NCBI GenBank assembly: GCA_964016885.1
Contig: OZ024743.1
Coordinates: 115,382,001 to 115,446,000, forward strand
Reading direction: 5' to 3'
Source: Eledone cirrhosa
Taxonomy: Eukaryota
DNA: 64,000 nucleotides
The notes beneath the pieces were generated by a model. The model ran no database searches. It was given only the letters and a program-made list of their open reading frames with translations, and was not told the DNA's origin. Of the stretch, positions 20,858-58,371 are shown one piece after another; position 1 is the first letter of the stretch, and each line of letters begins with the position of its first letter. The position numbers and the translations under genes are program-made.

Positions 20858-20932
20858 TTTATTAAAATAACAGATTAAAGTTTAAGCAAAGAATCGCTGC
20901 TTTCAACCTTAACGGGATCTTCTGAAACTAAC
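20858..20932 (-). ncRNA. Family B short repeat, a hammerhead-like pLTR terminus (copies 32067-32135, 34200-34273, 54731-54805, and 57985-58052 on the opposite strand)
   Basis: Family consensus on the minus strand: AGUUU-CAGAAGA-UCCC guuaa GGGU-GAAA-GCAGCGAUUCUUUGC-UU-AAACU. Confidence 0.7.
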
Positions 20933-21195
20933 CAATATAAATATATGTAAATATAAGAGAGTATTGAAGTTTGCTTGAAGCATTGTGGAATAATAAGATA
21001 TATTTTCTATTTGGACGTTTTGGAAGCCTCAACAATGCAGATGGGTAATTTTCCGGGTAGCAAGATCCGGTGGTGAAGAGAGAGATGTAAGGGAATGTAG
21101 AATGAGATGTATAGTGTGTAGAAGAACGCAGGAAAGAGCGTAAAAAATAAAAATAATAACACGAGATAGAGTTACCTTGGGAGAAATTTAATTGT

Positions 21196-21229
21196 CCCTA
21201 TATTTCGGATTAACATCCATCAACTGGGG
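21196..21229 (-). ncRNA. Minimal hammerhead-like motif, core CAGUUGA, in the 3' end of the GC-rich PLE
   Basis: CCC-CAGUUGA-U-GGA uguuaa UCC-GAAA-UA-UA-GGG. Confidence 0.6.
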
Positions 21230-21490
21230 GGTTTGTCGGGGGGAGGGGGAATATTATCTGTCGGAGAGGAGCGATACGTGTCCTCTGCTGTTCGTTGTTT
21301 TGAATATGTGAGGTATTCAGCAGCGCGCGCGCGCGGAATGAGTTCGGTCAAGCAGAGGTCGACGGCCGATATAGTTCTTTTAATTATGGGAGTGGGGTGG
21401 CGTTAGCTGTCAATCCATTGTATTATCTGTCTGTGCTGGTTTCTATTTTAGCAGTGTTGTATAGTGTATTCGTGTGGTGGTGGTATTCCC

Positions 21491-21706
21491 TGCCTGTTTG
21501 GTGAATGCTACTGTGTATTTGTTTGTGTACGTGTGTTGTTGTCTCGCTTGTGTGTGTGAGGGTGTTGTTGTCCCGTTTGTTTAAACCAACTCATTTCGTC
21601 TGCCTGTTTGGTGAATGATACTGTGTGTGTGTCCGTGTGTTGTTGTCTCGCTTGTGTGTGTGCGTGTTTGTTGCCTCATTTGTTTAAACCAACCACCTCA
21701 TTTCGC
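21491..21706. repeat. ~110-bp tandem duplication in the PLE 3' UTR
   Basis: tgcctgtttggtgaatg...gtttaaaccaac..tcatttcg starts at 21491 and again at 21601. Confidence 0.8.
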
Positions 21707-54070: not shown

Positions 54071-54218
54071 TAATGTATGTATATGCACATACACACACAC
54101 GTACACATACGCGAACATATACACATACGCACACATATACATGTCAGCGCGCTGAAAAACATCCTAATCTCTTCAATTCTCCCCCCTCTCTTTCTCAATA
54201 TATATATATATATATATA

Positions 54219-54620
54219 TATTGTTATGCTTTGGGAGGGTCATATTGCCAATACGAAGCACACGCACCAGATGCTTTCACTCAAATTTATTATAAATAAA
54301 ATTTATAAATTTAAGAATTTATAAATGTCCGGTTGGTTGGTTGGTTCTATAACCAGGCGGTTGTTCATATATTGTCAAAGTTCTTTCGTCACACATTATC
54401 TGACCTCTTCAGTAACTGGGGATTCTTTTCTTTGTTTTGTGCCTCTCCTTTGTTCTGTCCTACGCCATCTTGTTTTTTCACCAGATGGATAATAAATTGG
54501 AGTGAAAGCAACTGGTGCGTGTGTTTCTTATTGGCAACATGACCCTCCAAAGCATAACAATATTGGTTTCAACACACGTTTTCAGATAAAGAATCTTGCT
54601 AAACAAATTCAGAAACGAAA
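54219..54620. mobile_element. Fold-back pLTR remnant with hammerhead-like motif (54374-54416 -)
   Basis: Arms 54219-54293 and 54489-54563. Motif GUUA-CUGAAGA-G-GUCA..UGAC-GAAA-GAAC-UU-UGAC. Confidence 0.8.
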
Positions 54621-54959
54621 TATATATATATATATATATATAGTAACAATAGTAAATTTGAAGACTAAACTCCAAAGTGGGCTCGATAAGGATAAATATA
54701 TATCAAATATATAAGAGCCGTAGAGCAAATATTTATTAAAATAACAGGTCAAAGTTTAAGCAAAGAATCGCTACTTTCACCCTTAACGAGATCTTCTGAA
54801 ACTAAAAAAACAATCTGTGAACGCAGAAGTAAATATTTCGAAAAACGTGGCAACCGAAGGAAGAAAGGAAGACGACACTTTGCTTCGTGGTGACGTTTCT
54901 GGCAAAGAGCGGAAATAATATGGAGTACTGATGAATCTTTTCTATCTTGAAGCTCTCGC

Positions 54960-56543
54960 CAGTGTTAATTTAATCGTTCTCCTATACTACGAGCTGTCTC
55001 ACCTATGTACACTATATTCTTATCTTTAGAGTGTCCTTCAGTACATCTTATGCTATATACTATGTTTCTAGTTTTACAGTTAATATGGGCGCTTAGTTTA
55101 CAGATTATGCATTTCTTATCTATACAGGGAGGTCTTTGAAAAGGGTATGTATTGCTAATAAGTGTTTTTATAGAGGTACCTGGTCTTTCTACTATCTTAA
55201 TATTTAGTTTAAGTTTATCTAGGGCCCTTCTAAATTTGTAAGCTAATTCACCTCTAGAGGCTGTATTGATGAACATTACACTCTGGTATTTATTGCTATC
55301 TTACTATGAGTTTAGTCTATTAACCTTATTCCTAGTTCTTTCTATTCTATTCCAAAATGTGCTCCTATACAAGGGGCAGGTCCCATTTGTATCATTATTT
55401 AGCATTTTTTCCCATTTGGTTCTGACTCCTCTATATATACTCTGATTTTATCTCTCTGATTGTAACCAGAGAACTGCATACGGTGGATGAAGTGTTGTAT
55501 GTGTCTCTCTAGTTCTTTGGGGTTGCACATGCGGGACACGTTTCTCATCACCCGTACTAAATCTGCAATCAGTATTTTGATTTTGGTGTGATCCGAAACA
55601 GCTGAGTTTCGGTGGATCAGATATTTGGAAGTTATGGATTTGGCACAATGGGAATGGAAGATTTGTTTTTTGTTATTAATGGTTTCTAACCAGAGCTCTG
55701 TGTCTAGTACAGGTAATCGATGGTTGGGGTGTTTGATTGGGTAGCCTAGAGTAACTCTAATACTCTGGTGGATGGAGTTAGCTATTTGCTGGATGCTTTC
55801 CATGGTGTTTTTCTCTAATTCCTGACTGTTCTCTAGTGGGGGTGTTTTTACTACGATGTTTATATCATCAACGTAGCGAGAGTACATTATCAGGGTTCAG
55901 AGGTTGCTGTCTTCTAATTGTTCTTTAAGTTTATTGTCCCACCATACCATCAATAGATTTGCTATGTCACCTGCAATGGCTGATCCCTCCTCTTGGGCAT
56001 ATGTTTTTCCATTAAATTTGAACATATGTTCCTTAAGGGTTAGTTTTATACTGGCCCCAACCGCATGTGCAATAATTTTCTTCAGTTCATCATGGTTTTC
56101 GGGGTCCGTATGGTTCTGGTCCACCCGTTCCATCTTTCTGTGTGGGTTTTCTTGGCCATTGAGGTAATGGTAGGTGGTCTGCCTCTTGCTGGCCTTGAGG
56201 GGCAGAGGTTGCCAAGGTCATACGTATCTAAATAATCATTACTATAAGTAAGTTTAAGTAGGGGTCCCAGCTCACTGGTATCAATCCCACGGAATTGCAA
56301 TGTTGAATTCCGTAGGATTGGATTCCGTGGGTAAAAATTGTAAATAATGATACAAATGGGACCTGCCCCTTGCATAGGAGCAAATTTTGGAATAGAATAG
56401 AAATAACTAGGAATAAGGTTAATAGAATAAACTCATAGTAAGATAGCAATAAATACCAGAGTGTAATGTTCATCAATACAACCCCTAGAGGTGAATTAGC
56501 TTACAAATTTAGAAGGGCCCTAGATAAACTTAAACTAAATATT
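54960..56543 (-). mobile_element. Penelope-like element fragment, Naiad-like by motif recall, with inverted internal duplication
   Basis: IANLLMVWWD, YSRYVDD, IANSIH, LPVLDTELW, LVRVMRNVS, IKIVERPGTSIK, PCIDKKCIIC, NIVYSIRC, VYIGETARSIGER. 56341-56543 is an inverted copy of 55199-55401. Confidence 0.88.
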
Positions 56544-58371
56544 TGTGTGTGTGGGCGGGTGTGTGTGCGTGTGTGTGTGTGTGTGTGTGTGTGTGTGTGT
56601 GTGTGTGTGTGTGTGTGTGTGTGTGTGTGTGTGTGTGTGTGTGTGTGTGTGTGTGTGTGTGCGTGTGGGTGTGGGTGTTTAAAAGGTAAACAGAAATAAC
56701 AACACAATCAGTACAGTATATGTAAGGAATATATTAGGTTAATGCTTGAAATAGCAGGAAAAGGGTCATTATGTTTCGGACGCTAGCATAAAGAATGAGA
56801 AATAAGATAGATTGAAGGGATGAGCGGTGTGTTTGTTTTGTGTTGTTTCATTTATTAACTACACAGATACACACACACACGCACACACATATATATCTAT
56901 ATTATCTGTGTATGTGTGTGTGTAAGTATTGATCCATATTTCTGTCAGTCCCTGGCGTTACGCTGTTAGTTCTTCAGAATCTGAATAACTACTTTTCATA
57001 TCACACGGATACGTGTGCTCCAGAGAATCAGTCAAAAGAATCAGCCTAAATAAGCTATTACAATCCATACATTCATTAGGTATATTTATATATATATATA
57101 TATATGTGTGTGGGGGGGGGGGTGTATGTGTGTGTGTGTGTGTGTGTGTGTGCGTGTGTGTGCGAGAGCGTGCGCACGTGTGTGTGTGTGTGTGCGTGTG
57201 TGTGTGCATGTGTGAGTGCGTGGTGTGTGTACAAGATAATTTATCTATTATATTATTGTTGCAACGACGTTTATCATTCTAACTGTATAGAAAATGTGAT
57301 TGTTGTATTTGCGCCATGGACATTTAATGCGTCTGTCGATGGCTGAAAAGTGTTTATGGTAATTTAGCATGACAGTTGATCGTTTTATAGATACATTTGC
57401 AATGTCATTTGACATAATGATCGGATAAACGTTTCTATCCCTATTAAACATTTATGTGCCAACTGTAGAATGATTCTCCACTGGACGTTTTTCATTGCTA
57501 CATTCTATTGAATTTCGATTGAATTTTGAAACTAAAGTGGGAATCTAAATTCGGAATTCTAAACATAGAACTGTTCTGAATATTCAGTAGTATTCACTAA
57601 ACTTCATCTCAAATTATTCTAACCATCACCAAAACAACACTGAATTATTGCCCATGTACAATGAGTATATTTGCAAGAAACTTATTGAGGAAGAGAATCA
57701 AATGTAATTTATGTAAGCAAAAGATCTCTCGGTTCAAACAACTCAACGTAATAATGATATACGTTCTATTGTTTATTCCGAATACAGTATCAATACTTAC
57801 AAGATGGAAGGGATCGTTAATATATATTCGCCCACGTAAATGTATAATCACACACACACACATACCCCCCCCCCCCCACACACACAGTGTTATATGCAAA
57901 AACATACACAAGCATTGTATATATAGTTATAACTGTGGAGACTAAAATCCGAAGATGACTCGATAAGGATTATATATATAAATATAGTTTCAGAAGATCC
58001 CGTTAAATGTGAATGCAGCGATCCTTTGCTTAAACTTTAATCTGTTGTTTTAATATATATACATATATATTAAAAAGGATGGAAACCAAACATATGTGTT
58101 TATACTTATGTATATATATATATATGTGTGCGTGTGTGTTTGTGTGTGTGTGTTTGTGTGTGTGTGTTTGTGTGTGTGTATATGTTTTTCTATAATTTGT
58201 CCTAACTCTCGTATGGTTGAGTAAACAATTAGGCGGAATTAGACTGCTTCTTCTATCAATTCTGTTACTCGCCACCAGCCTATCCTTCACTACCCCTATG
58301 TACCGTAAAACCACATGATAATTTTATTTTCCGAAAGTTTAACTCGTAGCGTTTAGTTTGGGGAATTTGTC

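Follow-up and report, generated by a model that had tools for sequence, protein, structure and literature searches.

A hammerhead motif with adenosine at position 4 ends the pseudo-LTRs of a Penelope-like element in Eledone cirrhosa and may be conserved but catalytically crippled

The window analysed here, a stretch of 64,000 nucleotides (nt) from Eledone cirrhosa (GCA_964016885.1, contig OZ024743.1, positions 115,382,001 to 115,446,000 of the forward strand), contains five copies of a repeat that can be laid out as a hammerhead ribozyme with adenosine at position 4 of its core (A4). The base normally fixed there, U4, is near-invariant in hammerheads. The copies, of which four lie on the minus strand and the fifth on the plus, are 87-96% identical across about 75 nt, and the CAGAAGA core that a preliminary description of this DNA had read in all five was located at each site: 20918-20924(-), 32124-32130(-), 34260-34266(-), 54792-54798(-) and 57991-57997(+). 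The bare 7-mer scarcely exceeds chance, with 13 occurrences in the window against a mean of 7.0 in shuffled sequence (at least 13 in 2 of 100 shuffles). The repeat had been taken for a short stand-alone unit made of the motif. Judged from sequence, it is instead the 3' end of the pseudo-long terminal repeat (pseudo-LTR) of a young Penelope-like retroelement (PLE) inserted in (TA)n, assigned to the Hydra clade by motifs only. One truncated element of this kind spans 32061-34191, where the minus strand from 33953 to 32061 reads a truncated open reading frame (ORF), a 3' untranslated region (UTR), a pseudo-LTR ending in the motif, and (TA)n.

The majority layout of the copies is that of a type I hammerhead and fits the consensus first proposed for the stems, the U.U pair, GAAA and CUU. 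Stem I has five pairs (AGUUU/AAACU) and leads into the core strand and the U.U pair; stem II has three C-G pairs (CCC/GGG) with a 5-nt loop and is followed by GAAA; stem III has five pairs with a 7-nt loop and is followed by CUU. The three helices surround the core with stem I open, GAAA is in place and CUU supplies U16.1-H17. The departure from CUGAnGA is the A at position 4, the remaining core bases being canonical. The U at position 17 is the weakest of the usual cleavage sites. Across the copies 91.9% of stem cells are paired in register, against 25-63% after sliding. The layout stands for the majority sequence and not copy by copy, only the copy at 34200 being fully intact; each of the other four has private changes, most of which break pairs. 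By descent and layout the motif is still to be called a hammerhead, as had been suggested. The diverged relative proposed at 35178-35235 lacks the first core strand and stem II, and we rejected it as a hammerhead: the piece consists of the motif's 3' half (35219-35173), to which part of the element's tail (about 35252-35220) is fused in inverted orientation.

The assignment of the element draws on its 709-aa ORF, which encodes a reverse transcriptase (RT) followed by a C-terminal GIY-YIG domain. It carries RWR, DKT, CxCx5C, CxxC and CxH at 41, 119, 568, 666 and 694, ORF marks by which Craig et al. 2021 define the Hydra clade (PMC8557442; here and below, cited papers are represented by excerpts). 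A Pfam search of the 709-aa protein gave no significant match. When the ORF-piece protein was searched against the 3.0-Gb genome, 150 scored matches were obtained at 88-93% identity (the window's own excluded), with several open frames of 698-714 aa. The motif lies downstream in sense, 0.75-1.25 kb past the ORF stop, at 25 of the 29 loci chosen solely through the ORF protein, and A4 is present in all 22 of those 25 in which the core is readable. The element also shows pseudo-LTRs in partial tandem, 5' inversions, an optional tail and (TA)n targets. No canonical hammerhead was found near its 3' end, the A4 motif being its only hammerhead-like motif; in four full-length tandem copies CUGAnGA is absent from the pseudo-LTR and occurs solely inside the ORF.

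Copies of the family end in two ways. Among 96 alignments, 45 stop 26-29 nt past the nominal cut and 46 reach +110-114 through the tail, which is the end of the reference. These two classes resemble the two start sites and tail described for the element PAc (PMC11167929), from which we infer that the solo copies are short 5'-truncated insertions. Abundance was estimated from eighty 10-kb stretches chosen without the motif, 10 beside the window and 70 at round positions of the four largest contigs; these 800 kb held 19 family pieces, or about 70,000 genome-wide by extrapolation. A non-LTR retrozyme, with independent tandem units of 150-450 bp each bearing a hammerhead, was also considered and mostly rejected, as the window copies are element ends. 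A tandem derivative of about 370 bp does exist (loci L242-L261 of our set, for example L246:812-1763), with one to three units made of the 3' part of the pseudo-LTR, the 5' UTR and the first codons. One upstream flank is common to 19 of its 20 loci, which speaks against the retrozyme reading. The derivative retains A4, with one change per loop; several of the 20 loci differ 3' of the (TA)n, and the copy at L258 was inserted independently. The derivative is possibly a chimera mobilised by the A4 family's protein.

Table 1. Pieces of the A4 family in the window (positions are those of the window).
Feature	Position	Strand	Remarks
5'-truncated solo copy of pseudo-LTR 3' end, into (TA)n	20855..20935	-	layout 20929-20879; one stem II pair broken
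3' pseudo-LTR, Hydra-clade PLE (by motifs)	32061..32575	-	layout 32135-32085, with two broken stem I pairs; followed by (TA)n
Other dispersed repeat interrupting the 3' pseudo-LTR 32061..32575	about 32270-32450		
3' UTR of the element at 32061-34191	32576..33179	-	66-79% identity to the equivalent stretch of other copies
5'-truncated ORF (linker and part of GIY-YIG)	33180..33953	-	open frame 33889-33293; frame break near 33293
Inverted pseudo-LTR piece abutting the truncated ORF	33954..34191	+	usual Penelope-type 5' inversion
5'-truncated copy, intact hammerhead layout	34197..34294	-	layout 34271-34221; predicted cut between 34226 and 34225
Chimera without core, not a hammerhead	35173..35252	-	old-subfamily 3' half (35219-35173) behind inverted tail piece
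5'-truncated copy with full tail	54642..54918	-	layout 54803-54753; pairs kept via two G.U wobbles
Inverted tail piece	57923..57986	-	head to head with copy 57985..58060
5'-truncated decayed solo copy	57985..58060	+	layout 57986-58036; stem II and A15.1 gone

The A4 core is a trait of the family and not per-copy decay, in agreement with the preliminary description. It was present in 58 of 58 copies chosen independently of the motif and in 29 of the 30 copies drawn from older subfamilies, and it predates the present amplification burst. Genome-wide, the 25-mer that runs from the core to GAAA occurs 22,430 times with A4 against 889 times with C, G or U. Inspection of 30 of the non-A4 matches revealed 24 head-to-head inversion junctions, five C or G point changes and a single plain U, and the idea that U4 copies represent an ancestral active form was rejected on these counts. 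The head-to-head inversions (L061-L090) often join at the near-palindromic core, so that one strand then reads a canonical CUGAAGA that lacks stem I. In contigs of four runs, two of them from other organisms, no other letter was seen at position 4 at 8% or more, a weak result as the identity of the contigs is uncertain.

Comparison of old and young subfamilies points to constraint on the motif. Between the two majorities none of the 39 core and stem positions has changed. In the 5' flank 31 of 155 positions have done so (p = 0.0009), the far part of it aligning less well, and over its near 86 nt alone the count is 10 (p = 0.03). The loops differ at 1 of 12 positions, with further loop sites variable among old copies, and the 3' flank at 3 of 25. 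Older subfamilies have a loop II one base longer, with one or two substitutions, and two substitutions in loop III, the core and stems being unaltered; at one old locus the ORF piece is 76-82% identical to the young protein. The young copies show no polymorphism at any of the 51 motif positions, compared with 13 of 120 positions (p = 0.011). Since core and stems have stayed unchanged while the flanks changed, the fold of the A4 motif seems to be conserved.

We put at roughly even the chance that the motif is a conserved but catalytically crippled hammerhead, which would cut slowly or not at all and whose fold would be kept for a non-cutting role. Because its core fails the CUGA test and its cleavage is only putative, the motif is not classed here as an active ribozyme. 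Poor cleavage is expected because, in a pairwise mutagenesis study, single and double mutants of the CUGA turn all showed low activity, the C3-G8 swap excepted (PMC9901934). The positions of DNA breaks were also examined. Breaks fall within about 3 nt of the nominal cut in 229 copies, against 476 at a control position 12 nt upstream; by hand count about 60 of 100 listed control matches were a loop-insertion variant or small indels, leaving roughly 180 true breaks. The same count in a canonical family gave 28 at the cut and 16 at the control (p = 0.096), no clear excess either, and such counts are taken as uninformative on cleavage. In the region of L123:3555-3605 the 5' break points cluster inside the motif and where it begins on the 5' side. 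Of 49 such breaks, about 25 lie between -52 and -9 of the nominal cut, in loci that were not picked by the motif and form a set enriched for complete pseudo-LTRs. It is possible that the clustering reflects reverse transcriptase stalling in the fold, or merely short second-strand pieces.

For a crippled hammerhead we propose the following course of events. The U-to-A change would have had a single origin and then spread because insertion does not need cleavage, so that A4 would cripple the cut at no cost to the element; insertion of PAc in vitro was likewise unaffected by hammerhead mutants (PMC11167929). The element protein would nick (TA)n, and uncut RNA would be reverse-transcribed from a start 29 nt or about 114 nt past the nominal cut. 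Early stops would give rise to the 75-bp solo copies and to the head-to-head inversions. The helices may be retained because they serve the complex of protein and RNA close to the start sites, perhaps by binding the protein or by presenting the start site.

Several observations weigh against this proposal. The mutagenesis was carried out on a type III hammerhead without protein, and the rate of U4A itself is not among the excerpts of that study (PMC9901934). All 11 core positions are unchanged too, which a purely structural role would not need, although the core by itself does not reach significance (p = 0.22). Conservation of the motif does not significantly exceed that of the 3' flank (p = 0.08), and what is constrained may therefore be the sequence of the whole 3' end and not the fold. 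Members of the old-subfamily set were selected for their similarity to a single old copy, motif included. Finally, the covariation that the preliminary description had named as a check was not seen: no compensatory change was found among the copies of the family. None is expected among the young copies because they are recent, and the sole double change stems from the non-homologous row of the 35178 chimera.

A more tentative possibility is that the A4 hammerhead still works, making a slow but useful cut after CUU, probably only when bound by the element's protein, with the whole catalytic fold selected through several amplification waves. Such selection would fit the unchanged state of the other core bases, the U.U pair and the three stems, set against subfamily flanks that differ by 12-20% and an ORF that differs by about 20% at one locus, but the conservation of the core is not significant by itself. 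Stem III is long enough for cleavage as a monomer, yet the cut site coincides with none of the 49 internal 5' ends, a test in which the canonical family also shows no clear excess. Dependence on protein has a precedent in the PAc hammerhead, which cuts only with its protein (PMC11167929), and change at position 4 has one in a viroid, where U4C lowers activity in vitro and still allows infectivity (PMC3088659). A family with C4 exists in the same genome (9 matches), whereas A4 is confined to one lineage, and the low activity of the CUGA-turn mutants came with no second-site rescue (PMC9901934).

It is unlikely, in our view, that the motif is a dead relic with no role as a fold, its apparent conservation arising from a 3' end sequence that the element requires, or from chance. 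The missing covariation agrees with a relic, as does the calculated folding: the intact copy is no more stable than shuffles (z = +0.37) and stem I scarcely forms in context, with a pairing probability of 0.01 in 214 nt. Two families with canonical cores fold just as weakly in the same calculations, however, and this takes force from the argument. In a windowed comparison conservation climbs gradually toward the 3' end, but the 3' flank has itself changed at 3 of 25 positions, and within the motif the subfamily changes are confined to loops. In favour of a relic, Naiads multiply without canonical hammerheads.

It is highly improbable that A4 is kept as a splice acceptor (core UUUCAG after a pyrimidine-rich stretch), with splicing removing the first core strand or, in a variant, a CUG-ending exon rebuilding it: in young and old copies alike pyrimidines make up 9-11 of the 14 bases before the AG, there are donor-like sites 490-850 nt upstream and the intron of D. 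virilis Penelope ends at helix I of its hammerhead (PMC4209133), but other nearby AGs score equally, the sole upstream CUG/GU site would yield a poor stem I, and no spliced copy occurs among 60 non-CAG junctions at the studied loci, a weak point because PLEs keep introns.

The function of the hammerhead in PLEs is an open question (PMC8557442, PMC11167929), and the A4 family offers a natural test of whether these elements need to cut themselves. Over several waves of this very successful family, a purine has occupied a core position that is otherwise near-invariant, and the rest of the motif has been kept. A dead A4 would mean that a canonical PLE family has spread in the absence of cleavage and that its fold serves some other purpose. 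If A4 cuts, the natural core is wider than descriptors assume, the U-turn uridine would be replaceable in a protein-assisted ribozyme, and searches based on CUGA would overlook tens of thousands of motifs. The surprise is moderate, since motif and element class are both known and the variant differs by a single base.

Other hammerheads are plentiful in this genome. A type I descriptor run over 864 kb returned 65 CUGAnGA, 10 CAGAnGA (all of the A4 family), 2 CCGAnGA and 0 CGGAnGA matches, and none in shuffled sequence. Across 241 loci and the window, 144 non-CAGA matches fell into 35 groups, one of which represents the A4 family's own mutants and some of which, as singletons, are probably chance; U.U leads in 10 groups and U17 in 9. 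Two unrelated single CAGA matches in this set also looked like chance, and in neither set was A4 found in another multi-copy family. A family with a CCGAnGA (C4) core (L194:4296, L045, L052 and others) and one of 7 matches with a U3:A8 core (UUGAAAA; L150:3185, L176:3919 and others) were observed. The window itself holds further type I hammerheads with canonical cores, in different repeat families, at 4326(+), 10881(+), 34936(+), 45531(-) and about 3215(-), several of them with a 10.1-11.1 mismatch or U17. An Rfam search of the window gave no hammerhead among the 150 of 188 matches listed, though these canonical cores are present, and a search of the motif gave none among 4 matches at E<=10.

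Other Penelope-like elements lie near the A4 copies. A young Hydra-type element occupies 14235-18549, with frames 15445-15867 and 15868-17799, pseudo-LTRs that are 99% identical and an inverted 5' piece; its protein is 39% identical to that of the A4 family. The element's CUGAAGA near 18274, which failed the type I descriptor, may possess an extremely long stem II. Fragments from further Penelope-like elements lie at 21821-23744 and 54965-56432, with an RT match (PF00078) at 22332-22826, and the A4 copy at 54731 interrupts one of these fragments.

No A4 core was found in the literature searched, which did not take in the PLE-variant study of Lunse et al. 2017 (PMC5785218), and this may list one. 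A metagenome scan for A4 motifs covered at least 117 loci; the A4 family was not among the matches listed, and the four that passed a loose filter were not convincing. The closest published relatives are the hammerheads of Hydra-clade PLEs (PMC8557442), which share with the A4 family the type I topology, the position near the 3' end on the sense strand, the (TA)n targets and the ORF marks. In the excerpted table of that study, compiled with a canonical descriptor, U10.1.U11.1 occurs in 14 of 26 rows, U17 in 10 and both in 8; CUGA is present in all 26 and A4 in none, 25 of the 27 listed families having a row. The U.U pair and the U17 site, both in the layout first described, are thus already published, and the A4 core is the sole unusual feature. 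Unlike the published rows, the A4 family has CAGA, a longer stem III and a non-palindromic 7-nt loop. A canonical Hydra family in the same genome (L262-L291; 7,534 pattern matches) is similar in its U.U pair, C-G-based stem II, loop II, U17 site and placement before (TA)n, and differs in keeping U4, in a short palindromic stem III and in an ORF only about 33% identical. N7 varies freely in this family (A 15, G 10, U 4 and C 1 among 30).

Natural changes at near-invariant core bases, with low activity expected, have been described by Perreault et al. 2011 (PMC3088659), namely U4C of a viroid, U3:A8, C6 and U10.1-U11.1, of which U.U is the best-tolerated mismatch. The excerpted variants include no A4, and U4C is still a pyrimidine. 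The minimal PLE hammerheads of Cervera and de la Pena 2014 (PMC4209133) resemble the A4 family in their pseudo-LTR position and many solo truncated copies; they show low activity in vitro and act as dimers. They carry G10.1-C11.1, with one additional base following A9, and their helix III is minimal and palindromic, in contrast to the U.U pair and 5-pair helix III of the A4 family. The PAc Poseidon hammerhead (Frangieh et al. 2024, PMC11167929) differs in having a canonical core and demonstrated protein-assisted cleavage, and in overlapping the start codon, whereas the A4 motif ends about 150 nt before the ORF. In common with the A4 family it lies in a pseudo-LTR and is found at AT-rich targets; in PAc two internal start sites give the tail, and uncut RNA is the template.

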